From: a virus
Lineage: Duplodnaviria > Heunggongvirae > Uroviricota > Caudoviricetes
IMG/VR virus record: IMGVR_UViG_3300028591_000093
Location: 16,765 to 80,764 of that record
DNA length: 64,000 bases
Strand: one strand, 5' to 3'
In this document: in pieces, positions 3,247-63,612 of the stretch
Position numbering within the stretch: position 1 is the first letter of the stretch
Layout: every line of letters begins with the position of its first letter
The notes under the pieces: model-generated
What the model was told of the DNA's origin: nothing
The model's input: the letters and a program-made list of their open reading frames with translations, nothing else
Databases searched by the model: none
Program-made: the position numbers and the translations under genes

Positions 3247-3257
3247 ATAGTAAACAA

Positions 3258-3668: not shown

Positions 3669-3680
3669 AGTTATAAAAAA

Positions 3681-3944
3681 TTAGTCTTCTCTTCCAGACT
3701 TAACAAGAACTAAATCCTTTGTGGAGAATAAATTCTCTTGGAAAGCTCCTTCAGAAGTAAACCAGAAACAACTGATTCCCTTCAAAGTAGAGATAGAATT
3801 ATCCTTCAATTTATAAAGATTCTTGTCAATCTTAGAAACAACCATAATTGGTCTATTAGGAATGTCCTGTCTCAATGTAACAACATCACCAGGAACAAAA
3901 TATACTTTCTCTTCCATATTATTATACATTAGGATTATTGTCAA
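3681..3944 (-). CDS. hypothetical protein (87 aa)
   Basis: ORF track. Its start overlaps the end of the groES-like gene. Confidence 0.35.
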   Translation of the reverse strand: MTIILMYNNMEEKVYFVPGDVVTLRQDIPNRPIMVVSKIDKNLYKLKDNSISTLKGISCFWFTSEGAFQENLFSTKDLVLVKSGRED

Positions 3945-6978: not shown

Positions 6979-7088
6979 TCTGCTTCTTTAGTTAAATTTT
7001 CAGGTACTTTTCTACCAGTAAATATTAAACTATATACAATCATTGCAATGCATAATTGTTTAAGTAACCATTTCCAAAACTTTTTCAT
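6975..7088 (-). CDS. small single-TM membrane protein (37 aa)
   Basis: MKKFWKWLLKQLCIAMIVYSLIF. ATGA overlaps at both ends link it to its neighbours. Confidence 0.4.
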   Translation of the reverse strand: MKKFWKWLLKQLCIAMIVYSLIFTGRKVPENLTKEAE

Positions 7089-7897
7089 AACATAATTGGA
7101 TTACATTGTTCTAAATCCTTTTTTAACTTTAAATCATTTATATGAAACCTAATCAATTTCTCAACTGTATTTTTAAGATATTCTACAGGATAAATAGCTT
7201 TTGGTTTCATATCTCTTACATGTACAATCTCTAACTTATCTATAATTAAATCTGGGTCTAATTGTTGTAAACACCAAGCATAAATAGAAAGTTGGAGATT
7301 ATAATGTGTGCCATTTACATCAGGTAGAGTATTCAGTGGGTATCTCATGTTTTTAGTCTTCATCCTACCTGTATCAAATCTACCCTTAAAAGATATTTTA
7401 TCAACATCTTTCCAATCAATAATGGAAATGTGTTTTCCTTGTTTGACAACTAAATCAGCTACTCCAACAAGAATATAGTCACCTACATTAACTTCCATCT
7501 TAAACTCTGGAAATAGTCCTGATTCAGTTACCATAAAATTATCAATCTGACAAACTGGAAGTTTTGCAATACCAAAAGTATTTTGTAGAGCTGCAACATC
7601 TTTAGTAAACATTTTCTCTAAAGCTTCATGAGTAGCAAGACCAGCTGCTTTAGCTTCATCGTTCTTATCTTTCCACTCTTTATTTATCTCTTCTAAAGCT
7701 TTCTCATATTCTTCTTTACCAACATCAGCAATGTACATTGGGAGAATTTTCTTACTTCTTAATAAACCTGTCTTAATTTCTGCAAATCTATCAGGTTCCA
7801 TTAACTTCTCTAAAGCTTTATATCCAGCCCAGAAATCACCATCAAAACAGTGATACTGTTGGAGTAATACAGTTGTTGCAATTCTATTGTCTTCCAT
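7085..7897 (-). CDS. PD-(D/E)xK nuclease, RecB/Cas4-like exonuclease family
   Basis: GVADLVV...IIDWKDVDK gives the D...ExK core. QLSIYAW gives a RecB-family QxxxY motif. Confidence 0.5.
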   Translation of the reverse strand: MEDNRIATTVLLQQYHCFDGDFWAGYKALEKLMEPDRFAEIKTGLLRSKKILPMYIADVGKEEYEKALEEINKEWKDKNDEAKAAGLATHEALEKMFTKDVAALQNTFGIAKLPVCQIDNFMVTESGLFPEFKMEVNVGDYILVGVADLVVKQGKHISIIDWKDVDKISFKGRFDTGRMKTKNMRYPLNTLPDVNGTHYNLQLSIYAWCLQQLDPDLIIDKLEIVHVRDMKPKAIYPVEYLKNTVEKLIRFHINDLKLKKDLEQCNPIML

Positions 7898-13856: not shown

Positions 13857-13872
13857 ATATTGTATAATTTAG

Positions 13873-13959
13873 TCGCCCCTGAGGGACTCGAACCCTCACT
13901 TCTTCCAACAGAAGGACATGGTTTTAGAGACCAGCACACTACCATTATGTTAAGGGGCA
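13873..13959 (-). tRNA. suppressor tRNA, anticodon CTA (reads UAG), type II with long variable arm, discriminator A
   Basis: Acceptor TGCCCCT/AGGGGCG, D-arm ACAT-AATGGTA-GTGT, anticodon arm CTGGT-CTCTAAA-ACCAT, variable arm CTTCT-GTTGGA-AGAAG, T-arm GAGGG-TTCGAGT-CCCTC. Confidence 0.7.
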
Positions 13960-21734: not shown

Positions 21735-21804
21735 AGTATATTAGCTCAGTTGGTAGAGCACTACAGAGATGTAGCGGTCGGAGGTTCAAGTCCTTCATAT
21801 ACTC
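21735..21804 (+). ncRNA. tRNA-like RNA with canonical acceptor, D- and T-arms but a truncated anticodon arm (5-bp stem, 4-nt loop); pseudo-tRNA or Y-RNA-like
   Basis: AGTATAT/ATATACT acceptor, GCTC-AGTTGGTA-GAGC, CTACA-GAGA-TGTAG, GGAGG-TTCAAGT-CCTTC. Only 70 nt long. Confidence 0.45.
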
Positions 21805-21888
21805 CTTTGGTGAGAGTGGGGTTAGACTCACAAACAAAACAGATATGTGCTCACAGAATCTATATTACTAAAAAGTATATAAACTACA

Positions 21889-31067: not shown

Positions 31068-32948
31068 ATGAATTGGACAATTTTTGCTGTAATTGCAGTG
31101 ATTTTAGTAGTCCTAGTCATATCTGCTATCTGGCTTCTGTCCAGGTATCGGAGATGTCCTAGTGATGAAATTTTAGTAGTCTTTGGTAAGGCTGGTAAGA
31201 AAGAAGTAATGGTAAATGGAGAGAAGATTGAAACAATCTTACCTTCTAAAATTATTCATGGTGGTGGTACATTTGTATGGCCTGTAATCCAAGATTATAG
31301 GATGATGCAGTTGACACCTCATAAGATTCAACCTACTGTTACTGGTCTTTCTTCACAGAATATTAAGGTTACTATTCCTGTAACTCTTACCACTGGTATT
31401 GGTACAACTGATAATCTCATGCAGAATGCTGCTAGTAGATTCTTGAGTTCTTCTGTTCAACAGATGGATAATCAGTTGGAAGATATTATCATTGGTGAGG
31501 TTCGTTCCTTGATGGCTACAATGACCATTGAGGAAATCAATGCTGACAGAAATAAATTCCTGGATGAGGCCAAGAAAAGAATTGAGGTAGAACTGAACAA
31601 AGTAGGTTTCACTATCATTAACATCAATGTAGCTGACATTTCAGATAATGCTAACTACATCAACAATCTTGGTAAGAAAGCTGCAACTCAAGCACAAGCA
31701 CAGGCTGAGGCTGACATTGCAGAACAGGAGAAACAAGGTCAGGTAAAGATTGCTAACACCCAAAAGGAGAAAGAAATCCAAGTAGCTGCTGCTGAAAAGG
31801 AGAAAGCTACAACTGTAGCAAAGACTAAGCAAGAAGAAAGAGTAACTGTTGCTGAGGTAAACAAAGAACAGGATATTCAACTTGCTGAGGCTGCTAGAGC
31901 TAAAGCAGAAGGTGTTGCAATTGCCCAATCAGAACAAGCTATTGCTGTTGCTAAAGCAGAGCAGAAAGCACAATCTGAGCAGGCAGCACAGGAATCTATT
32001 AAGCAGATTAACATTGCTAAAGCAAAGGCAGAAGCAGCAGCAAAAGCCGCAGCTGCTGAGCAAGCAAAAGAATCTGCTGTTGCAGAAGCTACACAAGAGA
32101 AAGAGGCAAAGATTGCAGAGTATGAGTCTAATAAAAGACAAGTAGCTGCTGAAGCTTCTAAGAAAGCAGGTGTAGCAGAGCAAATGGCTACTATTGATGT
32201 AGCCAAAGCAAAAGCTGAAGCTGGTAAAGCAGAAGCTGATGCACAAAAAATAACAGGCATGGCCAAAGTTGAGGCTGAAATGGCAGTTGCTCAGAAAGAG
32301 CAGGAACAAAGAATTAAGGTCAATGAGACTACTGCAAAAGCCAAAGAGGCTGAAATGCAGGCAACAATGATTGTTCCTACTCAGAAAGCAAAAGAAAAAG
32401 CTGTCATTGAAGCTGAGAAAGTAAAACAAGTAGCAGTACTTGAAGCAGAAGCAAAAGCTGCACAAATCTTGAAAGAAGCTGAGGCTCAAGCTGAAGCAAT
32501 CAAGATTAAACAGTTAGCTGAGGCTGAAGGTAAAAGAAAAGTTTTACTTGCTGAAGCAGAAGGTAAGAGAGCATCTCTTATGGCTGAAGCAGAACAGCAA
32601 CAAGCTATTGCACTTGCACCAGCTCTCGCATTTGAGAAGATGGTTCAAACAGCAGGTGGTAATCCTGATGTAGTTGTTCAGTACATGATGACTGACAAGT
32701 ATGAAGGTATTGTAGGACAGCAAGTTAAGGCTCTTGAGCATATTCAGCTTGGTAATGTAAATGTGTATGGTGATGCCAACACAGGTGCACAATTCATGCA
32801 GAGTATGATTAAGAACTTTGCTCCTATGATGGATGGATTTAATGTAGGATTGAAAGACAAAGTTAAGAGTCTGTTCTTGGGCTCTAGTCCTAGTACTACT
32901 AATCCTCCTGTTACTGAAACAAAGGTGGAAATGCCTGAAGTAAAGTAA
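31068..32948 (+). CDS. SPFH/Band-7 (flotillin-like) membrane protein with long Ala/Glu/Lys/Gln-rich coiled coil
   Basis: N-terminal TM, SPFH-like region (EVRSLMATMTIEEINADRNKFLDEAKK), then about 300 aa of EA-type coiled-coil repeats typical of flotillins. Confidence 0.55.
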   Translation: MNWTIFAVIAVILVVLVISAIWLLSRYRRCPSDEILVVFGKAGKKEVMVNGEKIETILPSKIIHGGGTFVWPVIQDYRMMQLTPHKIQPTVTGLSSQNIKVTIPVTLTTGIGTTDNLMQNAASRFLSSSVQQMDNQLEDIIIGEVRSLMATMTIEEINADRNKFLDEAKKRIEVELNKVGFTIININVADISDNANYINNLGKKAATQAQAQAEADIAEQEKQGQVKIANTQKEKEIQVAAAEKEKATTVAKTKQEERVTVAEVNKEQDIQLAEAARAKAEGVAIAQSEQAIAVAKAEQKAQSEQAAQESIKQINIAKAKAEAAAKAAAAEQAKESAVAEATQEKEAKIAEYESNKRQVAAEASKKAGVAEQMATIDVAKAKAEAGKAEADAQKITGMAKVEAEMAVAQKEQEQRIKVNETTAKAKEAEMQATMIVPTQKAKEKAVIEAEKVKQVAVLEAEAKAAQILKEAEAQAEAIKIKQLAEAEGKRKVLLAEAEGKRASLMAEAEQQQAIALAPALAFEKMVQTAGGNPDVVVQYMMTDKYEGIVGQQVKALEHIQLGNVNVYGDANTGAQFMQSMIKNFAPMMDGFNVGLKDKVKSLFLGSSPSTTNPPVTETKVEMPEVK

Positions 32949-34397: not shown

Positions 34398-34771
34398 GGG
34401 CCTATTTGGTTTTGACAGCATTATATGATTAATGGGAACATGCAAAGAGAGTACTGCTCTAAATTACGGTACAAAAAATAAATGCTAGCAGAAGAAGACC
34501 TGTTAGATTGGTTGCCTAAGCTTAGGCTTACTTAACTGTAAACTAGCTTATTATGGCATAACCTGGGTAATTATACCTGGAAACAGAAAATAATTGACAT
34601 TGTGGAAAGACACATTTAACTTTCTTCAAAGTATAAATGAAGTGGTGGAGTGGCTAGTTGCCAAACCAATTAGCCCCTGTGGGTAAAGTAACCACATTAA
34701 AAAGAACTAAGCATGTAAAGTTTCCTATTAGTTGATATTGTTGGACCTGGGTTCGACTCCCAGTAGGTCCA
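34398..34771 (+). ncRNA. ssrA: tmRNA (SsrA), about 374 nt. Predicted tag reading frame GCT AGC AGA AGA AGA CCT GTT AGA TTG GTT GCC TAA, giving (A)SRRRPVRLVA
   Basis: 5' GGGCCTA pairs with 3' TAGGTCC plus discriminator A next to the T-arm CTGGG-TTCGACT-CCCAG. The segment AACTAAGCATGTA matches the conserved E. coli tmRNA segment CUAAGCAUGUAG. Resume codon lies at nt 87, preceded by AAAAAATAAAT as in E. coli AAAAAAUAGUC. Confidence 0.6.
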
Positions 34772-35307
34772 CTGGTCCTTGAGGTTTTTGTTTCTCTGTT
34801 AGTTTTTCTACGATTTTTCCTAGCAGAGTTTTTGTTTTTCCTCAAGAGTAGGTCTCTCCATCCCTATATAAAAAAGATGGTATCTATATAGACATAAGTC
34901 CACAATTAAGGAGGTCATTGTAGTGATACAGAATAGGCAAAAGCTATTTGTCAGAGAGCCTTGCTCACTAGGTTAAGACAAACTACATAATAAGCTAGAA
35001 TAAAAGTATGGAGACTCAGAGCACCTAGTATGGCAGTCTATAACCATAGGTATTTATATACTTTATTTTACTGTGTTTGGGCAAACACTTGAAACGGCAT
35101 CCTAGTTTGGAGGTTTAAAAGTTAAAACCTTCTGCGAGCATAGGCATCCCTTCACTGGGAAAGTTATGCTCAACATCTGGTGTTAAGTAGCACCTAAAAT
35201 ATACTTCTTATGTGATTCAATGGTTAATATTGTGTTTTTGTTTGCGCGGTGACTCTAGGCAAGATGGGTTGTGAAACTAGTCTTGCCACCTTCTTTTTCT
35301 AAAGTTT

Positions 35308-36519
35308 ATGAAAAATGTAAAAATATATGCAAAAACAGTTGAAGATGAGGCAATGTTACAAATTCAAAACATGTCTTTATCTGATGCTTATGGAGAATGT
35401 CCTGTAAGAATAATGCCTGATTGTCATGCAGGTGCAGGATGTACAATTGGTACTGTAATAGGTATTAAAGATAGAGTTGTACCTAATACAGTTGGAGTAG
35501 ATATAGGATGTGGAATGTTGGTTGTTCCTTTAGGTAATATTGAGATTGATTTAGCAGCTCTAGATAATTTCATTAAAACTGAAATACCTTCTGGATTCAA
35601 TATCAATGAACAGTTTCTTGGTAAAAGTTTTTATCATCCTAGTACACTTACTCAATTTAAATGTCAAGAAGTTATAGATGCTGATATGGCTTTAAAGTCT
35701 ATTGGTAGTCTTGGAGGAGGTAATCATTTTATTGAAGTTGATATAAATGAAAATGATGAAAAATTTCTTGTAATTCATACTGGTAGTAGAAATCTTGGTG
35801 TAAGAGTATGTAAGTATTATCAAGAAAAAGCTATAAAGAGTTGTAAAGCAAAGAGAACTGATTTTATAGAAATTATTAACAGTCTTAAAGAACAAGGAAG
35901 ACAGTCTGAAATCAATGCTACTCTTGCACAAATTAAAGCAACTCAATCACCTTTCAATGCTGAATTGGCATATCTTGAAGGTAAAGACCTTGAGGATTAT
36001 CTTAATGATATGAGATTATGTCAAGGATATGCTTCTTGTAATAGAAGAGCAATTGCTATTAGAATTCTTGATTTCTTAGGACTTTCTAATCTTCTTTCTG
36101 ATTTCTTAGAAGGACATGATAAATCTTTTACAACTATTCATAATTATATTGATTTACCACATAAGATTCTTAGAAAAGGTGCTGTGAGTGCACTTAATGG
36201 AGAAAAGCTTATTATTCCTATTAACATGAGAGATGGTTCTCTTATCTGTATAGGTAAAGGTAATCTTGATTGGTTGTATTCTGCACCTCATGGAGCAGGT
36301 AGACTTATGTCTAGAAAGAAAGCAAAAGAAAGTCTTAAAGAAGAGGACTTTATTGAAGCAATGAAAGGTATTTATACAACTACAGCAACTAAAGATACTA
36401 TTGATGAAGCACCTATGGTATATAAACCGATGGATGAAATCATGGAGTGTATCAAAGATACTGTAGATGTTGTAGATATTATTAAACCTATATATAATTT
36501 TAAAGCAGCAGAGCAATGA
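35308..36519 (+). CDS. rtcB: RtcB-family RNA 3'-phosphate/2',3'-cyclic phosphate ligase
   Basis: 403 aa. RIMPDCHAGAGCTIG and VGVDIGCGM match the RtcB metal-binding motifs. Confidence 0.75.
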   Translation: MKNVKIYAKTVEDEAMLQIQNMSLSDAYGECPVRIMPDCHAGAGCTIGTVIGIKDRVVPNTVGVDIGCGMLVVPLGNIEIDLAALDNFIKTEIPSGFNINEQFLGKSFYHPSTLTQFKCQEVIDADMALKSIGSLGGGNHFIEVDINENDEKFLVIHTGSRNLGVRVCKYYQEKAIKSCKAKRTDFIEIINSLKEQGRQSEINATLAQIKATQSPFNAELAYLEGKDLEDYLNDMRLCQGYASCNRRAIAIRILDFLGLSNLLSDFLEGHDKSFTTIHNYIDLPHKILRKGAVSALNGEKLIIPINMRDGSLICIGKGNLDWLYSAPHGAGRLMSRKKAKESLKEEDFIEAMKGIYTTTATKDTIDEAPMVYKPMDEIMECIKDTVDVVDIIKPIYNFKAAEQ

Positions 36520-36968
36520 TAAATAATCAAATTGATAAACTTATCATGGAGGCTATGAAGTCTCATGAGAATGTAAGAAAAGAGGCTTTAAGAGCAATTA
36601 AAGCTGCTTTCTTATTATGGAGAACTCAGAAAGAAAATGTTAATAAACCATTTACTGATGAAGTAGAAATTCAAATCATCAAGAAAATGGTAAAACAAAG
36701 AGAGGATTCTATTGAGCAATTTAAACAGGCTAATAGAATGGATTTAGTTGAGGCAGAAGAAGCACAACTTAAAGTTCTTAAAGAGTTTTTACCAGTAGAA
36801 GCAACTAGGGAAGACATTTTGAAATGTTTCAATGATGTAATTGGACAAGATGGTTTTGAGCCTGTAAAGAAGAACATGGGTGTCATTATCAAAACAATAA
36901 AAGGTTCACTTCCTAATGCTGATGGCAAATTAGTTGCAGAAGTTGTACAAGAATTTTTAAACAAATGA
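36516..36968 (+). CDS. GatB/YqeY-domain protein
   Basis: 150 aa. NVRKEALRAIKAAFLL and overall size and pattern match YqeY. ATGA overlap with rtcB. Confidence 0.5.
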   Translation: MINNQIDKLIMEAMKSHENVRKEALRAIKAAFLLWRTQKENVNKPFTDEVEIQIIKKMVKQREDSIEQFKQANRMDLVEAEEAQLKVLKEFLPVEATREDILKCFNDVIGQDGFEPVKKNMGVIIKTIKGSLPNADGKLVAEVVQEFLNK

Positions 36969-37561
36969 AAAAGACATTATTTGTTTTTAATATTCAAAGT
37001 ATTTCTGATGTTATTACTAATAGTTCTAGTGAACTGTTTGTTTTTGACAATAAAAATACTGTTGCAGAAGTAATAGCAATTCTTGATAGTATTTATCCTA
37101 ATTGGTCAACTGAGTATAATGACCCAGTTCTCCTTAGAGATGCAGATGATGAAGAGGTTGAAACCTACTTTGATTATAGTATGGCTTATTCAGATATTGA
37201 GGATTATGGTACATACTATAGAGAAGAAGATGGAAACCCCATTGAGTATGCTAAAAAGAGAGCTAAGACTTATAAATCTGCAATAACTAAGTTCCTTAAA
37301 AAGAATTGGAATCTTGATGTAAAATTCTCTGATTTCTACAAAGATGCAGATGATTGTTATAAGAAGTTTTTACCACACCATATGGAACAATTCAGAGGTT
37401 CTCTTAATATGTGGTGGTATCCTCAAATAACTGATTCTGGACTTTCTATGTTAAGAGAAAAGAATGGTGACAGAATTCTTTTGTTCTCTAAGGATGAGAA
37501 TCCTAATTGGGATTATCAAGAAAAGTTAATGGAAGTAGCAGAAAGGTATCATTTAGGATGA
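36965..37561 (+). CDS. hypothetical protein, paralog of 37558-38001
   Basis: Shares the N-terminal block FNIQSISDVITNSSSELFVF with the next gene. Confidence 0.4.
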   Translation: MKKTLFVFNIQSISDVITNSSSELFVFDNKNTVAEVIAILDSIYPNWSTEYNDPVLLRDADDEEVETYFDYSMAYSDIEDYGTYYREEDGNPIEYAKKRAKTYKSAITKFLKKNWNLDVKFSDFYKDADDCYKKFLPHHMEQFRGSLNMWWYPQITDSGLSMLREKNGDRILLFSKDENPNWDYQEKLMEVAERYHLG

Positions 37562-38001
37562 TTACATTCATTATACCTATTCAAAGTATATCTGACATAA
37601 TAACCAATAGTTCATCTGAACTCTTTGTAGCATTTGCAAATCCTGAACAAGAATTTACTAGTACTATTGTTGCTAAGAAATTACAGGAAATTTGGGATAA
37701 TGATGATAAAAAGAGAGAGGAGCTTTGGAACCAATACTGTAGTAGAGGTAAAAATAACTGGGATAAATATGATGAAGCTTTATACAAGTTAGGACTTGAT
37801 GAGTCTTCAGGTGATGCAGCAGAATGTGAAGTCACTACACTTTCTTATAAAGATATTGCTCATGATGTTAAAAGACATTTCAGGGGTAATGTTGATAAGA
37901 AAAATGGTTTGTTCTTACAAATTAGAATTGACCATAATAGAAGACATTCAATTGATTGGATTAGAAATAATCTGTCTGTTGTATCTAGTTACAGTTGTTA
38001 A
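37558..38001 (+). CDS. hypothetical protein, paralog of 36965-37561
   Basis: Starts MITFIIPIQSISDIITNSSSELFVAF. ATGA overlap. Confidence 0.4.
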   Translation: MITFIIPIQSISDIITNSSSELFVAFANPEQEFTSTIVAKKLQEIWDNDDKKREELWNQYCSRGKNNWDKYDEALYKLGLDESSGDAAECEVTTLSYKDIAHDVKRHFRGNVDKKNGLFLQIRIDHNRRHSIDWIRNNLSVVSSYSC

Positions 38002-38894
38002 TTATGAAAGATTTTACTCACTTTGGTATTAAACAGAGGAATTTTTCAGAATATAACTATAATGCTATATGGCAAAATCTAAAAACAGTAAGATTAGGAC
38101 AAGGAGTAGCTCAAGAGTTACCACCTATCTGTTCTGAGTTTTATGATGTAAGTCTTGGTACTAAGTGTAATCTAGAATGTCCTTTCTGTTATACTAATGC
38201 ATTACATACAGGTGTATTCTATAAGGATGTATGTGAGAAAGCAAAAAAGTTCTTTGGAGAGATGGATGAAAATTCCAAACCTTTTCAAATAGCAATAGGG
38301 AGTGAAGGTGAGCCAACAATTCATCCTGAATTCATTCCTTTCTTACAAACTATATATAACTTAGGAATAGTACCTAACTACACTACCAATGGTATAACTC
38401 TAGCTTCTGAAGACAATAAAGAATTGTTGGAAGCAACAGAGAAGTACTGTGGTGGTGTAGCTGTAAGTGCAAACACTTGGAATGAAAATATCAATAAGAC
38501 TTGGAAGAAAGCTGTTGATAATTTAAAAGGTATAGACATTAACATTAACATTCATTACATAATTTCAGATAAAGCTTCTGTTGACAAATTTGTCAGTGAA
38601 GTATATCCATATGTAAATGATATATTGTATTTTGTTCTATTACCACTTATGCCTTCTGGTAGAAGTGTTTGCAAATATACACAAGAAGAATTTGAGTATT
38701 TGTTAAGTAAAAATTTAAATTGGTCTAAAATAGCTTTTGGAGCACATTTCTATGACTTACTTAAACAACAAAATAAAATCAAATGCTGGTTGTATCCTCC
38801 TGAGAGTTTCTCAAAGAATTTAATTTTGGGAAATCCTATAAAAATAACAAAAAGTTCTTTTCACAAAGAGCCAATCTGGCAAAAAGATGTATGA
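37995..38894 (+). CDS. radical SAM enzyme (299 aa)
   Basis: CNLECPFC gives the Cx3Cx2C cluster motif. GSEGEPTIHPEF...TTNGITL is the SAM-binding glycine-rich motif. Confidence 0.55.
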   Translation: MLIMKDFTHFGIKQRNFSEYNYNAIWQNLKTVRLGQGVAQELPPICSEFYDVSLGTKCNLECPFCYTNALHTGVFYKDVCEKAKKFFGEMDENSKPFQIAIGSEGEPTIHPEFIPFLQTIYNLGIVPNYTTNGITLASEDNKELLEATEKYCGGVAVSANTWNENINKTWKKAVDNLKGIDININIHYIISDKASVDKFVSEVYPYVNDILYFVLLPLMPSGRSVCKYTQEEFEYLLSKNLNWSKIAFGAHFYDLLKQQNKIKCWLYPPESFSKNLILGNPIKITKSSFHKEPIWQKDV

Positions 38895-39551: not shown

Positions 39552-40397
39552 ATGAAATATAGGTTTTTAGCTAAAGAAACAACTGAAGCTCTTATAAAGT
39601 ATTTACAATCTTGGTTTGAACAAAATGGACCAGGATGTAATGCTGTAATAGGTATATCAGGAGGTAAAGACTCTACTATTGCAGCAGCACTCTGTGTAAA
39701 AGCTTTAGGTGCTGAAAGAGTCATAGGTGTATTGTTGCCAAATGGTGTTCAACATGATTTCAATATAGCACAGAAAGTGTGTGAAACTCTTGGAATCAAG
39801 AACCTGTCTATTCCTATTGGGACTATCTTTGAAGAATTCCAGGATAGATATAAGATGGCAAATGTACACAATACTCTTAATGAAGTAACTGAGCAAGCAA
39901 GAATTAACTTAGCTCCTAGAATTAGGATGACTATGTTAAGATATGTAGCACAAGCAAATAATGGCAGATTGATTAACACTTCTAACTTATCTGAAGACTG
40001 GGTTGGTTATGCAACTGTTGATGGAGATAGTGCAGGAGATGTATCACCATTATGTATGCTTACTGTACAAGAAGTAAAAGCTATTGGACATGAACTTGGA
40101 CTTCCTGCTGAACTTGTTGAGAAAGTTCCTGAAGATGGACTTGTTGGTACATCTGATGAACAAACACTTGGAATCACTTACAAAGATATAGACACCTATA
40201 TCAGAGAAGGTGAAGGAAGTGCTGAAGTAATTGAAAAGATTAACAAAAAGTTTGAAGCAAACAAGTTCAAGATTTATAGAATGGCAAGTATGCCTTGCTT
40301 CTGGCCTGAAATTGAAATGTTGTTTGACTTAACTGAAAAGCCTACCAATGTAGAGATAATGTCTCTAGGTATGGCTAAAGACCCAAGATTCCAATGA
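39552..40397 (+). CDS. nadE: NH3-dependent NAD+ synthetase
   Basis: 281 aa. VIGISGGKDSTIAAAL gives the PP-loop SGGxDS. Overall NadE pattern. Confidence 0.7.
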   Translation: MKYRFLAKETTEALIKYLQSWFEQNGPGCNAVIGISGGKDSTIAAALCVKALGAERVIGVLLPNGVQHDFNIAQKVCETLGIKNLSIPIGTIFEEFQDRYKMANVHNTLNEVTEQARINLAPRIRMTMLRYVAQANNGRLINTSNLSEDWVGYATVDGDSAGDVSPLCMLTVQEVKAIGHELGLPAELVEKVPEDGLVGTSDEQTLGITYKDIDTYIREGEGSAEVIEKINKKFEANKFKIYRMASMPCFWPEIEMLFDLTEKPTNVEIMSLGMAKDPRFQ

Positions 40398-40945
40398 GAA
40401 AGGTTCTTATTTTGATTGATTGTCAAAATGATTTCTGTGCACAAGGTGGTGTTTTGGCAAATAAAGAGTCTATTGCAATTGCAAAAGACATTGCTAAAAC
40501 ATTACCTGAGCTTATTTCTGAAAAAGGTTTTGACTATATTCTTGCTACAAGAGATACTCATTATAGGCAATCTTATGATGTCACAGTAGAAGGTAAACAT
40601 TTACCTGTTTTACATTGTATATGTGAAACTGCTGGTTGGTGTCTAAGAGATGATATTATGGAAGCTCTTGACAATTGTCAAGTTCCTAAAAAGTTTATAA
40701 ACAAACATACATTTGGTTATAACAATTGGGAACAAATAATTGGTTCAGATAAGTCAGAAATAAGAGAGTTCTATTTAGTAGGATTCTGTACTGATATTTG
40801 TGTTGTTACCAATGCTCTTGTTCTCAAGACATTATACCCTAATTCAGAAGTGTATGTCTATGAAGGACTGACAGCAGGTGTAACTCCTGAAAAGAAAGAG
40901 GCAGCTATTGAGACAATGAGAAGCTGCCACATAAACATTATTTGA
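40394..40945 (+). CDS. pncA: nicotinamidase/pyrazinamidase (isochorismatase fold)
   Basis: LILIDCQNDF (Asp), GFCTDICV (catalytic Cys), 183 aa. ATGA overlap with nadE. Confidence 0.65.
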   Translation: MRKVLILIDCQNDFCAQGGVLANKESIAIAKDIAKTLPELISEKGFDYILATRDTHYRQSYDVTVEGKHLPVLHCICETAGWCLRDDIMEALDNCQVPKKFINKHTFGYNNWEQIIGSDKSEIREFYLVGFCTDICVVTNALVLKTLYPNSEVYVYEGLTAGVTPEKKEAAIETMRSCHINII

Positions 40946-41020
40946 TATGGACAATATTGTTGAGATGGCAAGTTTTATTGCAGGTGTAACAGTTGGTTTC
41001 GCTTCAATGTTTCTTTTCTT

Positions 41021-41230
41021 ATGAGTGAAAATGCTAAAACAAATATAACTATAAGTTTCAATCTTCCACTTATTTTAACAATTGCTTTCTTTATTGCTAA
41101 GGTGACAGAGAAAATTGATTGGAATTGGTGGTGGGTATTTAGTCCTTTGTGGATTACTGGAACTTTAGTTGTTTTAATGTTTATAATCTACATAATTATT
41201 CAATGCTTTTCGTCAACAAAATACCTGTAA
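41021..41230 (+). CDS. small membrane protein (69 aa)
   Basis: ORF track. Two TM helices. Confidence 0.35.
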   Translation: MSENAKTNITISFNLPLILTIAFFIAKVTEKIDWNWWWVFSPLWITGTLVVLMFIIYIIIQCFSSTKYL

Positions 41231-42033
41231 AGGTAGAACATTTCCAGGATGGTACTCAAAAGATAAATATGCCAGATTTTGGTGTAAATGCTTTTCATAT
41301 AGTATGGAAGTATCATTGTGATGAAGAATTAGTCACATTGATATTTGTTTGTGGTTATCTCAGAGATAATTATCAAGACTGTACTATATCTCTGGAAATG
41401 TTGTATGTTCCTAATGCTAGAATGGACAGAGTAGAAGAAAGAGGAGATGTCTTTACCCTTAAGTATTTCTGCAATGTTATTAACAGTTTACAGTTTGAAA
41501 GTGTAACAGTTTTTGATACTCATTCAAAAGTAACTGATGCTCTAGTTGATAGGATGTGTAAAATACCAACTGATGTATCATTGAAAGAAGCCCTTGATGT
41601 TATACATAGTGGGATGTTTGATGATAAATTCAGTAAGGTTACAATTGTATTTCCTGATAGAGGTGCTTATGATAGATACAGTTCTCTTGAAATCTTAAAG
41701 CCTTTTAGAAAGGTAATAGGAAACAAATCAAGAGACTGGAAAACTGGCACTTTGCAAGACCAGGAGCTATATGGAGTAGATACATTGGAGACAGGTATTC
41801 CTGTTCTGATTATTGATGACATATTATCCTCAGGTGGTACCATCTGTAAGACTATTGCAAATATCAGGGAAAAAGTGAATTGTCCAATTTATGTATATGC
41901 TTCCCACTGTGAGAATAAACTTATAGAAGATAATACAGAGAATTGGCAATACATTCTAAGTAATGTAACAAAATTGTTTACAACAAATGGGATATATTCT
42001 CATGAAATTGAAAAGGTTGTGATATTATGGTAG
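41203..42033 (+). CDS. prs: ribose-phosphate pyrophosphokinase (PRPP synthetase)
   Basis: FQDGTQKINM, YVPNARMDRVEERG (compare Prs YARQDRK), VFDTHS (compare DLHA) and PRPP-binding VLIIDDILSSGGTICK. Start taken at the internal ATG 41203. Confidence 0.6.
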   Translation: MLFVNKIPVKVEHFQDGTQKINMPDFGVNAFHIVWKYHCDEELVTLIFVCGYLRDNYQDCTISLEMLYVPNARMDRVEERGDVFTLKYFCNVINSLQFESVTVFDTHSKVTDALVDRMCKIPTDVSLKEALDVIHSGMFDDKFSKVTIVFPDRGAYDRYSSLEILKPFRKVIGNKSRDWKTGTLQDQELYGVDTLETGIPVLIIDDILSSGGTICKTIANIREKVNCPIYVYASHCENKLIEDNTENWQYILSNVTKLFTTNGIYSHEIEKVVILW

Positions 42034-43208
42034 CAATAAACCCTGCAAGTATGTTGGATAATGACCTCTATAAGTTTAGCATGAGCTATGCTTATATGAA
42101 GTTATTTCCTGAAGCAGAGGGTACATTTGTTTTCTGTGATAGAGGTAAAACAGAGTATACTGCTAAATTTGTAACCGCTTTGCAACAAGAGTTACATAGA
42201 CTGGCAGAAAGAATGTTGTCTAATGCAGAGAGACAATGGTGTGTACAAAACATACCATACATTCCTGAGTGGTATTGGGAATGGTTAGAGTCTTTCTATT
42301 TTAATCCAAACTTAATTAAACTTTCCCTTGAGAAAGATGGTGAGTTGAAGATTGAAGTTACAGATAAACTTTATAAAGTTACTCTGTATGAGGTACCTAT
42401 TCTCTATACAGTTGCAGAAACATACTATAAAATCTATGGTAAATCTCTAACTGTTGACCAGTATCAAGAGATATGTAGAAAAACTGAAGAGAAATGTAAG
42501 ATTGCTGAAGAAGCAGGATTTAAATTCTCTGAGTTTGGTACCAGAAGAAGATATAGTTATGAAGTACAAGATACAGTTGTAGCTGTTTGTAAGAACTCTA
42601 CATCCTGCGTCGGTACTTCAAATGTACATCTTGCAATGAAATATGACATGAAACCTATTGGAACTGTAGCACATGAATGGGTAATGTTTCATGGTGCTAT
42701 GTATGGTTACAATGAGGCTAACTACATGGCATATAAAAACTGGGTAAAGGTTTATGATGGCAATCTTGGTATTGCTTTAACTGATACCTATACTTCTAAA
42801 GTCTTTTTCAAGAATTTTTCTTTACAACATGCAAAATTGTTTGATGGTATAAGACAAGATTCTGGAGATGAGAAAGACTTTGTTGAGAGAGCACTAGTTA
42901 GATATGATGAGTTAGGTATCAACCCACTCACAAAAACTATAGTGTTCTCTAATGCTTTGGATTTTCCAAAAGCTGCTCAAATTGCTGAATACTGTAAAGG
43001 AAAGATAAAAGCTTCCTTTGGTATAGGCACTAATCTTACCAATGATATTGAAGGTGTACAGCCTAGAAATATTGTCATGAAGTTAATGCATTGCAGAATG
43101 AACCCAAGACAAGAATGGGTAAATTGTGTAAAGATTTCTGATGACATTGGTAAAGTAATGGGAGCAGATGAGGAAGTAAAAACTGCTATTTATAAATTAG
43201 GTCTATGA
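42027..43208 (+). CDS. pncB: nicotinate phosphoribosyltransferase
   Basis: 393 aa. N-terminal LDNDLYKFSM and EFGTRRR signature of PncB. Confidence 0.65.
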   Translation: MVAINPASMLDNDLYKFSMSYAYMKLFPEAEGTFVFCDRGKTEYTAKFVTALQQELHRLAERMLSNAERQWCVQNIPYIPEWYWEWLESFYFNPNLIKLSLEKDGELKIEVTDKLYKVTLYEVPILYTVAETYYKIYGKSLTVDQYQEICRKTEEKCKIAEEAGFKFSEFGTRRRYSYEVQDTVVAVCKNSTSCVGTSNVHLAMKYDMKPIGTVAHEWVMFHGAMYGYNEANYMAYKNWVKVYDGNLGIALTDTYTSKVFFKNFSLQHAKLFDGIRQDSGDEKDFVERALVRYDELGINPLTKTIVFSNALDFPKAAQIAEYCKGKIKASFGIGTNLTNDIEGVQPRNIVMKLMHCRMNPRQEWVNCVKISDDIGKVMGADEEVKTAIYKLGL

Positions 43209-43681
43209 GAAATTTTCCAGTAGAACATGAAGGAAAAACCTACTGGATAAGTAGGTCTGTAGCAGTTGCAGGTTTCATCTTCACCAAAGATAGTCAAGGA
43301 AATTGGTTAGTTCTTGCAAATAAGAGAGGACCAGGTTGTCCTGATAATGTTGGTAAATGGGTTTGTCCTTGTGGATACCTAGATTATGATGAAACCCTCA
43401 AAACAGCTATTATAAGAGAAGTTTATGAGGAAACAGGAGTTCTTGTACCTGCTGATAAACTTCAATTTGCAGGTATAGATGATGTACCTGAAGGTAGACA
43501 AAACTTAACAGTAAAATTTACTGCATATCTTGGTTCTGATTCACCTGCTGTGAAGATGTTATCTAAAGAGCATTGTGAACCAGATGAGGTAGATGAAGTT
43601 ATGTGGATACCAGTAGCTAAAGCAGGTGAGTATGATTGGGCTTTTGGACATTATGAACTAATTAGGAGTTTTGTACCATGA
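43205..43681 (+). CDS. Nudix hydrolase (ADP-ribose/NADH pyrophosphatase-like)
   Basis: Nudix box GYLDYDETLKTAIIREVYEETGV. ATGA overlap. Confidence 0.65.
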   Translation: MRNFPVEHEGKTYWISRSVAVAGFIFTKDSQGNWLVLANKRGPGCPDNVGKWVCPCGYLDYDETLKTAIIREVYEETGVLVPADKLQFAGIDDVPEGRQNLTVKFTAYLGSDSPAVKMLSKEHCEPDEVDEVMWIPVAKAGEYDWAFGHYELIRSFVP

Positions 43682-44265
43682 ACCCAAAAGTAGCTCATCT
43701 ATTTCTTACAGACAAGTGCACTAATCAGTGTCCTATGTGCTGTAACAACAACTACACTGTAGACAGTATTCCTTTTATAACAAAAGAGGAGTTGTCTACA
43801 GTGGAAACTGTTTGTTTAACAGGTGGTGAACCTTTTCTTCTAGATAATCTTTATGGGATTGTAAATGTAATAAGTTCTTTTGCTAAGAATATCTATGTTT
43901 ATACTTCAGGTTATGAGTTACTCTATTACTTGAAAAAACATACCTTACCTTGTATAACTGGAATTTCCATTTGTCCAAAAGGTAAAAAAGATTGGGATGC
44001 ATTACAAGAACTTATACACAATACAAGAGCTAGATTGAGGATTTCAGAATGTAGTAATAGACTATATGTTCTTTTAAAACAAGAAGATAGAGCTAACTAT
44101 GTTACTGAAACTGATATTAGTTTGAGGGCAATTGAACATTTTGCTGAAGAGTTAAATGCTAAGATATTGTTCAGAACTTGGCTTCCTGAAATTACATCTC
44201 CAGATGGAGAGATATTTAGAAGAGTTAATTTAGAGGATTTAAAACAATGGAAATCAGAACTATAA
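43678..44265 (+). CDS. small radical SAM protein (QueE/NrdG-size)
   Basis: CTNQCPMC Cx3Cx2C motif and LTGGEPFL SAM motif. 195 aa. ATGA overlap. Confidence 0.5.
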   Translation: MNPKVAHLFLTDKCTNQCPMCCNNNYTVDSIPFITKEELSTVETVCLTGGEPFLLDNLYGIVNVISSFAKNIYVYTSGYELLYYLKKHTLPCITGISICPKGKKDWDALQELIHNTRARLRISECSNRLYVLLKQEDRANYVTETDISLRAIEHFAEELNAKILFRTWLPEITSPDGEIFRRVNLEDLKQWKSEL

Positions 44266-44879
44266 GAGGAAGAGCTGTCTTATATGGAGGTTCTTTCAAT
44301 CCTATACATAATGGACATATAGAAGCAATACAAATGCTCTTAGATAGAAGAGATACCAATGGTATGTACTATTATAATAAGGTAATTGTAGCTCCAAGCT
44401 TTGCAAGTCCTTTTAAGGAGTTTAATGTGTGTTTTGCAGACAGATTTGAAATGGCTGCAACTTCTATAAAAAGAGTAATAGGAGATGAAAGAGTAGAAGT
44501 CATCTTTGATAGTAATGCATCGCCATTATTTCAATATACTTACTATTTCCTAAAGCATCTATCTCTTAAGTATTCTGATTATTCCATTGATTTAGCTATA
44601 GGTGCAGATTGTCTTGCACAAATAACTAAATGGGCATGTTTTAAAGACATACTTTATCAGTTTGATATTGTAGTAATACCTAGAGAAGGAGTTGAAATGA
44701 AAGTTCCTGAGGGATTAACTCTAGCTAGAAGTATTACTAAAATGTCAGAAATTCCTTCTAATATAAGTTCAACCTATATCAGACAATGTATTGATGAGTG
44801 TAATCCAGAATGGAAAACACTTGTTCCTAAATATGTTGCTGATTATATTCAAAAACATCATCTATATGACTGTAGTTAA
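44247..44879 (+). CDS. nadD: nicotinate-nucleotide adenylyltransferase
   Basis: YGGSFNPIHNGH (HxGH nucleotidyltransferase motif) and C-terminal ISSTYIR (NadD ISSTxIR motif). 210 aa. Confidence 0.7.
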   Translation: MEIRTIRGRAVLYGGSFNPIHNGHIEAIQMLLDRRDTNGMYYYNKVIVAPSFASPFKEFNVCFADRFEMAATSIKRVIGDERVEVIFDSNASPLFQYTYYFLKHLSLKYSDYSIDLAIGADCLAQITKWACFKDILYQFDIVVIPREGVEMKVPEGLTLARSITKMSEIPSNISSTYIRQCIDECNPEWKTLVPKYVADYIQKHHLYDCS

Positions 44880-45372
44880 TCGGACAGGAAATCTATTAGA
44901 TTCAGAAGCACAGATAATCATGCACCAAGTAAATGATGCTGGTGTAATGGGGAGTGGAGTTGCTGCTGCTATTGCACACAAGTGGCCTTATGTACAAGAA
45001 CAATACACTGTTCTTATGCAACAAGGTGGCCTTAAACTAGGTGTTGTACAGGTTGTTGAGCATGAACAATGTGTAGAAGGACAGGAAGAACCAAACTATC
45101 CTTACATTGCAAATTTGTGTGCTCAAGACTTATACCAAAAAGAGCATTCTTTCTTGAGTATAGGATGTCCTACAAGTTATGATGCTTTGTGGATGTGCCT
45201 AGTTAAATTGGCAAAAATCTGTGAAGAAAACAAAATAAGAACAATTGCAATGCCTTATCTCATGAGTTCTTGTAGAGGTGGTGCTAACTGGAATGTAGTA
45301 CATTCTATGGTTCTAGCAGCATTTGAAAACCTTGATATTACTATTGAGATTTGGCAGTTGCCAAAAGAATAG
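44866..45372 (+). CDS. macro-domain protein (ADP-ribose binding or hydrolysing)
   Basis: IMHQVNDAGVMGSGVAAAIAHKWP resembles the macro-domain NAANxxLxGGGGVxGAI motif. Start at the internal ATG 44866 just before the nadD stop. Confidence 0.55.
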   Translation: MTVVNRTGNLLDSEAQIIMHQVNDAGVMGSGVAAAIAHKWPYVQEQYTVLMQQGGLKLGVVQVVEHEQCVEGQEEPNYPYIANLCAQDLYQKEHSFLSIGCPTSYDALWMCLVKLAKICEENKIRTIAMPYLMSSCRGGANWNVVHSMVLAAFENLDITIEIWQLPKE

Positions 45373-53185: not shown

Positions 53186-53763
53186 GGGCACCTTGGCGAA
53201 ATTGGCAGACGCGCTAGACTTTATCTATAATTTGAGTGCTTATAAAGAAACTTATAGAGTAGAACCTCCCTAATTCGGTGAAGACTAAGTTAGAATAAAA
53301 AAGAAAGTGTAAGTTTTGAAGAAGATTTCACGAATCTCTGGACAATCCTGCATCCTCGCTGAGTTTTTCTTTTTCTAATATGTTAATACCGAGCCAATGT
53401 TAAAACTCAATGATAGGTCTCAATAAAATGGAAGAAGAGACTGATGATATGTCATCCTGAAAGAATTGAGATAATAGACAGTGTGTAGAGACTATACAGG
53501 AGGAACCTAAGTTAGAATTGTAAATTAGAGAACCATATGCATTCTGGGTAAACCGCTAGGTCAGTGAACATCTAATTTACATCTTGCAAGATTCTAATAA
53601 GGTTAAGATAGAGTCCAGACTACAACAAATAATTAGTTTACAGCCATGCAAAACGAGCTAGGTGAACATGCAATCGTTCTAGTTATTTGGCTATGGAAAC
53701 ATAGAGTAGTAAGAAAATCTAGTGGCCAGTGATGGCTGTGTGGGTTCAAGTCCCATAGGTGCT
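53186..53763 (+). tRNA. tRNA-Leu(TAA) interrupted by a group I intron: exon 1 53186-53220, exon 2 53713-53763
   Basis: Exons join to GGCACCT-TG-GCG-AAATTGGCAGA-CGC-G-CTAGA-CTTAAAA-TCTAG plus a 17-nt variable arm and GTGGG-TTCAAGT-CCCAT-AGGTGCT-A. The split lies between U34 and A35, the classical tRNA-Leu(UAA) intron site. Confidence 0.7.
53221..53712 (+). other. group I intron (492 nt, no ORF) in the anticodon loop of tRNA-Leu(UAA)
   Basis: Last exon-1 base is U and the intron ends in G. GGTGAAGACTAAGT (about 53278) resembles the group I R element. TAAGATAGAGTCC (about 53594) resembles the S element AAGATATAGTCC. Confidence 0.6.
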
Positions 53764-53769
53764 ACAATT

Positions 53770-61995: not shown

Positions 61996-63612
61996 ATGTC
62001 AAGATTTAGCAAAATGAATGTAGGAGTTCTTGCTACTACTAAAGTACAAGCTCCTAACACTGTTAATAGACAAGGACATGCTGCTTATGCATTAGGAGAT
62101 GAGTTAAAACTTTTATCAGCACTGAATGTTCTCAAGTTAGAACAACAGTACTATAGAGGTGTTAACCAACAAATGCTAGAAGTTATTGAACTTGTTGAAA
62201 AAGTGGCAAGGAAAGACCCTTATTTGGCTGCACAATGTATTGTGTATTCTAGATGGGAGGGAGAAGGTTTAAGAAGTGTAAATCATTTAGCAGCAGCCGC
62301 ATTGGCTGATTACATTGCTGGAAGAGAATGGGCTAAGAGATTTTACAGTTCTTATGATAAAAAGAACAAGAGAGGTGGATGTATATGTAGACCTGATGAT
62401 ATGTCTGAGATTAAGATGATTTATTTCGCTATGAATGCTCCTCATAAACTCAGTATGGCAATGAAGAAAGGTTTCAAGAACTATATTGAAGCATTGTCAC
62501 CATATCAGATGTTTAAATATAAAAAGCCTGTTATTGATATATCTAACTTAGTACATCCAAATCCTAATGTTACAGAAGACATTGAGGCTGAAGGTAGAAG
62601 AGTTAAGTCATTAACTGCTCTCATGACTGGTATGCATGTTGCTGCTAATACATGGGAGACTAGACAGTCTGCTGCTGGACAAGAAATAGCAGAACAAGTA
62701 AAAAGAGGTGAAATATCTGCACAAGAGGCTGAGTTGGCTCTTGACCAGGCTAAGAGTGAAAACTGGAATGACATGTTGATGAACAATCAACTTGGTATTC
62801 TTGCTGCTCTTAGAAACATAAGAAACATTCTCAAGACTGCTAACATCAATTCTATCAAGAAACTTTGTGGAATGTTAGAAGATGCTAAAAGAATCAGAGA
62901 AGGTAATATTATGCCACAACAGATAGATGTAGCCTATGACATTGTTATGGATGAATTTGCAAGTACTCAGACTGGTAAATTGATAGCTGCTTCCTTGATA
63001 AAAGGATATGAACTGTCTACTACTAATCTTGGTCCTGCATTGCCAGGTAGAAATTTGGTTATCTTAGATTGCTCAGGCTCTATGGGTTGGAGTAATGTAT
63101 ATGACCTTAGAAAGAAATCTGCTGGTAGAAATACAGTTCTGGATAAAGCATCACTTGTAGCTGCTACTATTTTAAAAGCAACTGGTGGTGATTTAATTGT
63201 ATTTGGTAGTGGTGCAAGAGAAGGTACCTATAATCCTATGCAAAATGTATTTGAGATTGCAAGAAGTCTCAGAAATACCAGCATGGGTGGTACTAACTTA
63301 GCTTCTGCTTTTGATTTAGTAGCTAAGAATTGGAACAATATCAAGTATAACAGAATTTTCATTCTTTCTGACAATGAATGCAATCAGGGTAGTAATGTAC
63401 AAGCTTATAAGAGATTACTGTCTAAATGTAGTGCAGATGAAATGCCTTACATTTACTCAGTAGATATGGCTGCATATGGTACTACTCCTATTAAACATGA
63501 TGGTAGAGTTAACTACTATTATGGCTTTGGATATGCAATGTTTGATGATGTAGCTAAACTGGAGTTCAATCCACAAGCTCACATTGAAAAAGTTAAACAG
63601 ATTGTCATTTAA
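61996..63612 (+). CDS. rsr: Ro60-like ribonucleoprotein (TROVE domain plus C-terminal vWA domain)
   Basis: 538 aa. N-terminal NRQGHAAYALGDELKLLSAL...YYRGVN...DPYLAAQCIVYSRWEGE fits the TROVE pattern. C-terminal LVILDCSGSM gives the vWA MIDAS DxSxS motif. Confidence 0.6.
   Translation: MSRFSKMNVGVLATTKVQAPNTVNRQGHAAYALGDELKLLSALNVLKLEQQYYRGVNQQMLEVIELVEKVARKDPYLAAQCIVYSRWEGEGLRSVNHLAAAALADYIAGREWAKRFYSSYDKKNKRGGCICRPDDMSEIKMIYFAMNAPHKLSMAMKKGFKNYIEALSPYQMFKYKKPVIDISNLVHPNPNVTEDIEAEGRRVKSLTALMTGMHVAANTWETRQSAAGQEIAEQVKRGEISAQEAELALDQAKSENWNDMLMNNQLGILAALRNIRNILKTANINSIKKLCGMLEDAKRIREGNIMPQQIDVAYDIVMDEFASTQTGKLIAASLIKGYELSTTNLGPALPGRNLVILDCSGSMGWSNVYDLRKKSAGRNTVLDKASLVAATILKATGGDLIVFGSGAREGTYNPMQNVFEIARSLRNTSMGGTNLASAFDLVAKNWNNIKYNRIFILSDNECNQGSNVQAYKRLLSKCSADEMPYIYSVDMAAYGTTPIKHDGRVNYYYGFGYAMFDDVAKLEFNPQAHIEKVKQIVI

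Follow-up and report, generated by a model that had tools for sequence, protein, structure and literature searches.

An RtcB ligase gene followed by yqeY

The DNA analyzed here, hereafter called the window, is a 64,000-nucleotide stretch of the Caudoviricetes record IMGVR_UViG_3300028591_000093 in IMG/VR. It lies on a phage-like contig with a length of about 169 kb, which was recovered in several metagenomes. The window has a GC content of about 34%, and its genes lack Shine-Dalgarno sequences. We focused on rtcB, a gene for an RNA ligase of the RtcB family, and on the gene for a YqeY-like protein that directly follows it, both of which had been singled out in an earlier reading of the letters alone (the original prediction). 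The two genes and the codons of the catalytic residues of the ligase are located as follows.

35308-36519, plus strand: rtcB, a stand-alone RtcB-family RNA ligase of 403 amino acids (Pfam, PHROG and PDB alignments)
35500-35502, plus strand: codon of catalytic residue D65
35509-35511, plus strand: codon of catalytic residue C68
35722-35727, plus strand: codons of catalytic residues N139 and H140
35776-35778, plus strand: codon of catalytic residue H157
36139-36141, plus strand: codon of catalytic residue H278
36289-36291, plus strand: codon of catalytic residue H328
36516-36968, plus strand: yqeY, a single-domain YqeY-like protein of 150 amino acids (the fold of the GatB tail, a tRNA-binding helper)

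The 403-residue open reading frame (ORF) matched the Pfam profile for RtcB (PF01139) with an E-value of 1.5e-62 and 212.6 bits, above the curated cut-off of 27, and the match extended over profile positions 13-425 of 426. It also matched PHROG 1075, "tRNA splicing ligase," with an E-value of 1.5e-127, and the family assignment made in the original prediction was thus borne out by the profile search that it had proposed. Active-site residues were mapped by alignment to the RtcB proteins of P. horikoshii and T. thermophilus in the PDB. Residues D65 and C68 of the window protein align with D95 and C98 of the P. horikoshii enzyme, N139 and H140 with N202 and H203, H157 with H234, and H278, located in an HNY motif, with H329. 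Furthermore, H328 in the sequence PHGAGR (the HGAGR motif) aligns with H404 of 1uc2/4dwq, which is the nucleophile that accepts GMP. In the P. horikoshii enzyme, metal binding involves D95, C98, H203, H234 and H329, plus N202. All seven residues of the window protein are invariant across six phage RtcB proteins with 40-81% identity. The Cys/His metal ligands, the loss of which was the observation that the original prediction had named as speaking against a ligase, are all present, and so is the GMP-accepting histidine. The scores of the window protein were below the cut-offs of the E. coli-type equivalog PRK09588 (116.7 versus 407) and of TIGR03073, "release_rtcB," which is associated with PrfH (87.5 versus 271.8 bits). 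As judged from these alignments, the gene is likely to encode a catalytically intact RtcB RNA ligase.

Likewise, the 150-residue ORF was recognized by the Pfam profile for YqeY (PF09424; E-value 9.8e-30; 104 bits at a cut-off of 27; positions 2-143 of 143), by PHROG 1460 and in comparisons with the solved YqeY structures 8xjg (E-value 4.9e-14) and 1ng6 (E-value 1.3e-13). Its position directly after rtcB, with an ATGA overlap at 36516-36519, is as originally described. The YqeY domain covers the protein from end to end, and the catalytic N-terminal domain of GatB was not found in it. The annotation "tRNA amidotransferase" that is commonly used in phages is therefore a misnomer, because YqeY lacks the catalytic domains of GatB. 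The homologs listed in the database are all single-domain proteins of about 136-158 amino acids, and no fusion proteins that could serve as Rosetta-stone evidence were identified among them. It has been shown that a YqeY domain raises the tRNA affinity of the glutaminyl-tRNA synthetase GlnRS in D. radiodurans, although only in cis, and tRNA binding is known solely for this fused domain and for the GatB tail (PMC1865053). The free YqeY protein is still referred to as poorly characterized (PMC13374519).

The nearest cellular relatives of the window YqeY are 53-59% identical to it and come from metagenome-assembled genomes (MAGs) of rumen Bacteroidales/Paludibacteraceae. Based on this similarity, the GC content and the lack of Shine-Dalgarno sequences, the host of the phage is probably a member of the rumen Bacteroidales. 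In the chromosomes of the putative host lineage, yqeY is flanked by efp, a gene for an AraC-type regulator and hsp20, and neither rtcB nor NAD genes are found next to it.

Loss and invasion of rtcB in related phages

The rtcB-yqeY adjacency is kept in four members of the genus: the window, its sister phage L099 (about 81% protein identity), L241 and L239, with YqeY identities down to 72%. A fifth member, L240, in which YqeY is 84% identical, has lost the rtcB coding sequence by a clean deletion, and yqeY, h198, h144, the radical-SAM gene and the whole NAD cluster stay in place. In a blastn comparison, window positions 35258-35306 correspond to positions 3219-3264 of L240 and window positions 36476-36999 to positions 3272-3790. 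L240 (3219-3310) keeps a degenerate remnant of 13 codons from the 3' end of rtcB, which still overlaps the start of yqeY as ATGA.

35307-36475, plus strand: segment absent from L240, corresponding to the rtcB coding sequence except for the final 44 or so nucleotides (blastn)
35713-35730, plus strand: uninvaded target site, GGAGGAGGT followed by AATCATTTT, inside the active-site motif GGGNHF

In L239, the rtcB gene is split between the GGG and NHF of this motif by an insertion of 892 nucleotides (L239 positions 6580-7471), which encodes a LAGLIDADG endonuclease with two motifs. The length of the insertion cannot be divided by three. The last nucleotide of the 5' exon is a U and that of the insertion a G, and a search of Rfam gave no match to the insertion. 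The insertion is intron-like, and we infer a group I type only from the nucleotides at the splice sites and the LAGLIDADG ORF. Split RtcB fragments with 91-95% identity recur on other contigs, and the insertion looks polymorphic. Some RtcB genes of Bacillus phages were also seen to match in two pieces.

We regard rtcB as an accessory gene that is dispensable in this genus. The natural variants of otherwise syntenic phages, in which rtcB is present, deleted or invaded by an intron, offer a ready comparison for studies of the role of RtcB in phages.

The region upstream of rtcB

The rtcB gene heads a tightly packed, co-directional block of accessory genes, which is preceded by a conserved leader hairpin and, further upstream, by a gene for tmRNA.

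34398-34774, plus strand: tmRNA gene, uninterrupted (Rfam RF00023, 93.2 bits)
34775-35257, plus strand: ORF-free stretch between the tmRNA gene and the leader hairpin, in which no structured RNA was detected
35258-35287, plus strand: leader hairpin GGCAAGA-[TGGGTTGTGAAACTAG]-TCTTGCC, located 21-50 nucleotides upstream of the rtcB start codon

The 16-nucleotide loop of the hairpin is invariant in five members of the genus. Two versions of the stem are seen, distinguished from each other by a single compensatory exchange (A-U to G-C) and a single G-U change. The hairpin is kept in L240 despite the deletion of rtcB. We therefore assign it to the leader of the operon rather than to rtcB itself. 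The possibility that the hairpin is a phage-wide motif was also considered and dismissed, as only a single copy is present in the window.

The gap of 533 nucleotides upstream of rtcB is conserved in the relatives within the genus only as short blocks, and no similarity was found outside the genus. Rfam searches of the gap for structured RNAs or a Y RNA at E-values up to 10 returned only noise, and the predicted folding of 34850-35307 was no better than that of shuffled sequences (z = -0.92).

Genomic neighbors of YqeY

The original prediction presented the ATGA-coupled yqeY gene as an unusual companion of rtcB. This claim was not upheld: the junction is a generic one, the adjacency is limited to a single genus and it is broken in L240. 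Overlaps of the type ATGA/TTGA are the most common junction between genes on the same strand in the window (18 of 96 pairs), and overlaps of the ATGA type are found at four successive junctions from rtcB to h147.

Nor were the two genes found to be paired in other phages. In GenBank and IMG/VR, 82 further phage RtcB loci were inspected, all of them without a YqeY gene within 6 kb, and an RtcB gene was not found within 10 kb in any of 57 YqeY loci in IMG/VR. The latter were collected with a profile built from five sequences, since a profile of 12 divergent YqeY proteins was too diverse. Similarly, of 78 metagenomic YqeY loci (52-66% identity, mostly host-like), those with enough flanking sequence all lacked an RtcB gene within 5 kb. 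The GenBank entry "Acinetobacter phage MD-2021a" (L237, CAKLQH020000004.1) was excluded from the phage comparison, since its sequence is that of a bacterial chromosome; it contains rpsU-yqeY, gcp, purF, pyrD and genes for type II secretion, and cannot be counted as a case of a phage YqeY.

The genes were seen together in a distant lineage represented by L227 and L228, where RtcB (37% identity), a calcineurin-like phosphoesterase and YqeY (41% identity) are encoded on one strand within 3 kb. This co-directional block may be another RNA-repair island. The block (932-5468) also includes a gene for an AAA ATPase, and the contigs, which are 100-120 kb long, have been binned as Firmicutes/Tenericutes MAGs. 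Conserved adjacency of rtcB and yqeY across independent lineages was not observed in this material, in which L227/L228 provide the only, loose, linkage.

A different set of neighbors emerged for YqeY. In the window, the following cluster was identified with the help of Pfam, and it starts 2.6 kb downstream of yqeY.

39552-45372, plus strand: NAD-salvage/ADP-ribose cluster encoding NadE, an isochorismatase/PncA-like protein, NAPRTase (PncB), a NUDIX protein, an NMNAT-like cytidylyltransferase and a Macro protein

Of the 57 IMG/VR loci, 46 have YqeY at the end of an array for PncA-like, NAPRTase, NadE, NMNAT-like and NUDIX proteins, 0.46-3.3 kb downstream of the NUDIX gene on the same strand and with the NAD genes within about 6 kb. 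The gene order in the genus of the window, with the NAD genes downstream of yqeY, is unlike that of the arrays in these other phages. Among the 11 loci without the array, five contain host-like YqeY genes with 51-65% identity, of which four lie on contigs of 26-380 kb, another two have YqeY genes with 44% identity, one contig is truncated just upstream, and three belong to Lak-like megaphages. In two Xanthomonadaceae jumbo phages the linkage involves partly different NAD genes: YqeY is located between NadM and NadV in Stenotrophomonas phage RAS14, and the NAD+ synthetase gene NadE is found 0.7 kb upstream of YqeY in Xanthomonas phage XacN1. The linkage of YqeY to NAD genes thus recurs with NAD enzymes that are partly non-homologous. 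It is absent from the phi92-like phages, the Lak phages, two very large uncultured phages and an Enterococcus phage.

The stable neighbors of YqeY in phages are NAD-salvage genes, and the contrast with RtcB, found in none of the 57 loci, is clear. We conclude that yqeY is not a dedicated partner of rtcB, because L240 has lost rtcB and kept yqeY and because other phages combine YqeY with NAD-salvage genes. This result removes an attractive but unsupported story about RtcB and its partner. It is possible, if doubtful, that YqeY is a functional and so far unrecognized part of counter-defense cassettes with which phages rebuild NAD+, here of the Preiss-Handler type, and that one phage genus acquired rtcB at the front of this anti-defense operon. 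Neither a YqeY/GatB-like gene nor the route via PncA, PncB and NadE is mentioned in the papers on phage NAD metabolism that were consulted (NARP1-3 and a survey from 2022). If the hypothesis is true, YqeY would link tRNA or translation to the restoration of NAD+, or else have an NAD-related activity of its own. YqeY has been an orphan for decades, and its position in NAD cassettes provides a testable functional lead in the fast-moving field of immunity by NAD depletion and of NAD reconstitution by phages.

A mosaic of accessory modules

Another module is located between yqeY and the NAD cluster.

36965-37561, plus strand: h198
37558-38001, plus strand: h147
38004-38894, plus strand: radical-SAM protein

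The products of h198 and h147 are paralogs that have an invariant N-terminal TNSSSEL motif in common, and no Pfam family was found for either of them. An AlphaFold2 model of h198 with a pLDDT (predicted local distance difference test) score of 88 yielded no informative neighbor in the PDB. The third protein matched the Pfam family Radical_SAM with an E-value of 2.3e-9. The pair of h198 and the radical-SAM gene, or the trio, recurs in unrelated large phage contigs that lack genes for YqeY, RtcB and NAD salvage. Since h198 and h147 accompany the radical-SAM gene elsewhere without these genes, we interpret the block as a chain of separate modules. The block is a mosaic of separately mobile units, consisting of rtcB, yqeY, h198-h147-radical SAM, h198b and the NAD-salvage genes.

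Elsewhere in the window, we identified genes for a Cpn60-type chaperonin (4250-5707, minus strand) and an SPFH/Band_7 protein (31068-32948, plus strand). Additional accessory genes in the window encode a HicA toxin, a GNAT acetyltransferase, an NT5C nucleotidase and a CinA-family protein.

Transfer RNAs, introns and a Ro60-like gene

The original prediction placed rtcB in a genome with about 25 tRNA genes, a tmRNA, tRNA introns and a Ro60 homolog, and we examined each of these features.

53187-53765, plus strand: tRNA-Leu(UAA) with an intron of 492 nucleotides after U34 (ARAGORN intron mode)
61996-63612, plus strand: Ro60-like protein with TROVE and VWA domains (Pfam TROVE and VWA_2, both weak)

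The tRNA-rich context was recovered, with 24 tRNA genes in the window: 22 predicted by ARAGORN, the intron-bearing tRNA-Leu and one that was identified by Rfam only. The tmRNA gene was likewise recovered by Rfam; ARAGORN predicts for it an arginine-rich tag peptide (ASRRRPVRLVA, then stop), and the tag in L239 ends in RLAA. In L099 (2151-3415), approximately 900 inserted nucleotides interrupt the tmRNA gene close to the T-arm, and a clear group I intron was recognized in them (RF00028, 87.7 bits).

The claim about tRNA introns holds in so far as one tRNA gene carries an intron. The intron matched the Rfam model Intron_gpI over its entire length (1-253 of 253) with an E-value of 9.5e-7 and 34 bits, short of the gathering score of 50. 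The position after U34 in tRNA-Leu(UAA) is the classic site of the group I intron in cyanobacteria and plastids. Group I introns excise themselves through transesterification, a reaction in which 2',3'-cyclic phosphate ends are not formed. The tRNA introns thus give no reason to carry RtcB, and the supposed need for a ligase falls away with an intron of the group I type.

The presence of a TROVE/VWA homolog was also corroborated, by matches to PHROG 850 (E-value 4.5e-30) and to the TROVE proteins 9kop/9l5y in the PDB (E-value 8e-9). Its proposed link to rtcB found no support: the two genes are 25.5 kb apart, and sensitive Rfam scans revealed no Y RNA or tRNA-like element beside the TROVE gene or rtcB.

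Two observations concern individual tRNA genes. A gene of 88 nucleotides (13872-13959, minus strand), which ARAGORN reports as "tRNA-Pyl," has the anticodon CUA and is of the amber-suppressor type. We considered stop-codon recoding through this tRNA and rejected it for the window, where no ORF is lengthened if TAG is read as a sense codon; any recoding would hence concern other parts of the genome. A tRNA-like gene at 21735-21805 was detected by Rfam with 53 bits, and an anticodon could not be assigned to it, as ARAGORN gives only the two bases "ag."

A putative role for RtcB in the rejoining of RNA

The explanation that we favor, and consider likely to be correct, is that rtcB is an intact accessory gene for the rejoining of RNA, and that YqeY is co-expressed without being a dedicated subunit. 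RtcB would then be a dispensable accessory protein of this phage, which has a genome of about 169 kb and a probable host among the rumen Bacteroidales. Judging from its homologs, the enzyme is expected to use GTP and Mn2+ and to become guanylylated at H328, whereupon the GMP would be passed on to an RNA 3'-phosphate, itself made from a 2',3'-cyclic phosphate. The 5'-OH end would then attack, and the break would be resealed. The likeliest job for such an enzyme is to rejoin tRNAs of the host or the 24 that the phage itself encodes, or else further RNAs of the translation machinery that are cut during infection. The cutters could be metal-independent RNases of the host, such as anticodon nucleases, HEPN toxins, Cas13 and the accessory RNases of type III systems. 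YqeY may be viewed as a host-like helper with the GatB-tail fold that is probably co-transcribed and co-expressed with RtcB and may bind tRNA; by the comparative data, its function would be tied to the NAD cassette or be autonomous.

The strategy against host tRNA cleavage that was envisaged in the original prediction is plausible in this light, and it has been put forward in print for phage RtcB proteins before; its links to tRNA introns and to Ro60 are what lacked support. Among approximately 105 ORFs scanned in the window, we found no members of the RtcA, RtcR, PrfH, archease, splicing endonuclease (EndA), Rnl, Pnkp or bS21 families.

Several considerations weigh against this explanation. 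The role in counter-defense is a deduction from what is known about the protein family. The rtcB-less state is represented by one metagenome contig of 14 kb, and many of the 46 loci in which YqeY is linked to NAD genes come from related gut phages and do not represent independent events. Some loose functional affinity between RtcB and YqeY is conceivable in view of L227/L228. Finally, the scans for partner genes covered the 64 kb of the window in a genome of about 169 kb.

We also considered the possibility that RtcB is joined by YqeY in a dedicated two-protein unit for tRNA repair, in which YqeY binds the body of the tRNA and presents or holds the broken halves. Such a unit would fit with the overlapping, co-directional genes, with their adjacency in four members of the genus across YqeY identities down to 72%, with the presence in L227/L228 of both genes within 3 kb plus a phosphoesterase gene, and with the enhanced tRNA affinity conferred by the YqeY/GatB-tail fold (PMC1865053). 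We nevertheless think it improbable, given that the pairing is found in none of the 82 RtcB loci and none of the 57 viral YqeY loci, that yqeY persists without rtcB in L240 and that four ORFs separate the two genes in L227. Fusion proteins are also lacking among the homologs, an ATGA overlap is the usual junction in the window, and the domain in D. radiodurans is effective only in cis. Yet another idea is that RtcB acts mainly on a substrate other than tRNA, either on rRNA, as part of ribosome repair comparable to that by PrfH-RtcB2, or on the adjacent phage tmRNA. The rtcB gene is indeed located 533 nucleotides downstream of the tmRNA gene in all members of the genus that have it, and in the PrfH-RtcB2 study RtcB2 reportedly repairs damaged 16S rRNA. 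However, prfH was not found, the TIGR03073 score is far below the cut-off, and the other phage RtcB loci that were checked (L005, L007) have no tRNA or tmRNA gene within 6 kb, which makes these substrates quite improbable.

The Ro60-like protein could in principle combine with RtcB and a Y-like RNA into a ribonucleoprotein for RNA repair, as has been suggested for rsr-yrlBA-rtcBA in Salmonella. A TROVE/VWA protein is encoded in the window, an association of Ro60 with RtcB is known in cells, and Ro60 is present in some large phages (PMC7824862). Set against the distance of 25.5 kb between the genes, the failure to detect a Y RNA or tRNA-like element beside either of them and the absence of RtcA and RtcR from the window, such a particle seems very unlikely. 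The idea that RtcB seals intron-containing tRNA or tmRNA of the phage after splicing is hardly credible, even though the window has an intron-bearing tRNA-Leu and relatives have introns in the tmRNA (L099) and in rtcB (L239). In tRNA-Leu, the intron fits the group I model and occupies the classic U34/A35 site, the tmRNA intron in L099 is a clear group I intron with 87.7 bits, and introns of this group self-splice, so that a ligase is not needed. Furthermore, the splicing endonuclease and archease families were not found among the scanned ORFs.

Comparison with known systems

The same ligase chemistry is expected as for RtcB in E. coli and in the Salmonella operon rsr-yrlBA-rtcBA, and a Ro60 homolog is here encoded in the same genome. 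Unlike these repair operons, the window contains neither RtcA, RtcR nor a Y RNA, and 25 kb separate rtcB from the Ro60 gene. It also differs from the PrfH-RtcB2 pair in that there is no adjacent prfH gene and no release-factor family in the window. In archaea and eukaryotes, protein-dependent tRNA splicing is performed by EndA, RtcB and archease, whereas the sole tRNA intron here is of the group I type and neither the endonuclease nor archease was found in the window. The repair by Pnkp and Rnl1 of tRNA-Lys cut by PrrC in phage T4 is similar in outline, in that a phage enzyme would undo the damage by an anticodon nuclease of the host. The T4 proteins, families of which were not found in the window, are however unrelated enzymes with an unrelated chemistry, since RtcB seals 3'-phosphate or 2',3'-cyclic phosphate ends directly with GTP and without a kinase-phosphatase.

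The window YqeY resembles the B. subtilis protein 1ng6, the protein in 8xjg/8xje, the GatB tail and the YqeY domain of GlnRS in D. radiodurans in its full-length profile match, its similar size and its fold associated with tRNA binding. In contrast to the yqeY genes of bacteria, which are often located beside rpsU (PMC13374519), it is phage-borne and not next to rpsU. The NAD cluster can be compared with the phage pathways NARP1 (Adps and Namat), NARP2 (Nampt and Nmnat) and NARP3 (PnuC and NadR), as it likewise contains a set of genes for making NAD, together with the NUDIX and Macro genes, and presumably also serves to counter NAD-depleting defenses. Unlike NARP1-3, the combination of PncA-like, NAPRTase, NMNAT-like and NadE proteins corresponds to a deamidated route of the Preiss-Handler type.

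Our closest points of comparison are the RtcB proteins of other phages. Homologs were identified with tblastn in 649 GenBank phage records from many host genera, and a large protein database contains thousands of relatives, of which those closest to the window RtcB, leaving its own genus aside, show 57-65% identity and are located on contigs of phage size. The presence of RtcB in a phage is thus common rather than unusual. A survey of jumbo phages has interpreted RtcB-type and ATP-grasp ligases, large sets of tRNAs and an occasional Ro60/TROVE protein as an RNA-repair answer to host RNases, and phage RtcB has been proposed to religate tRNAs cut by metal-independent RNases (PMC7824862). The phage members of PHROG 1075, for example gp87 of Bacteroides phage BS-TP1, the proteins of the Bacillus phages Deep Blue and Bcp1 and those of many mycobacteriophages, agree with the window protein in family, length and active site, and their genes likewise stand alone in large phages rich in tRNAs. 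The window RtcB is 50% identical to that of BS-TP1 and 48% identical to those of Deep Blue and Bcp1. It differs from other phage RtcB proteins in being at most 65% identical to anything beyond its own genus, in the location of its gene directly downstream of a tmRNA gene and upstream of yqeY, and in that the gene is variably present in the genus and invaded by an intron in some close relatives. With these features, the window RtcB adds one more member to a large and already recognized class of phage proteins.

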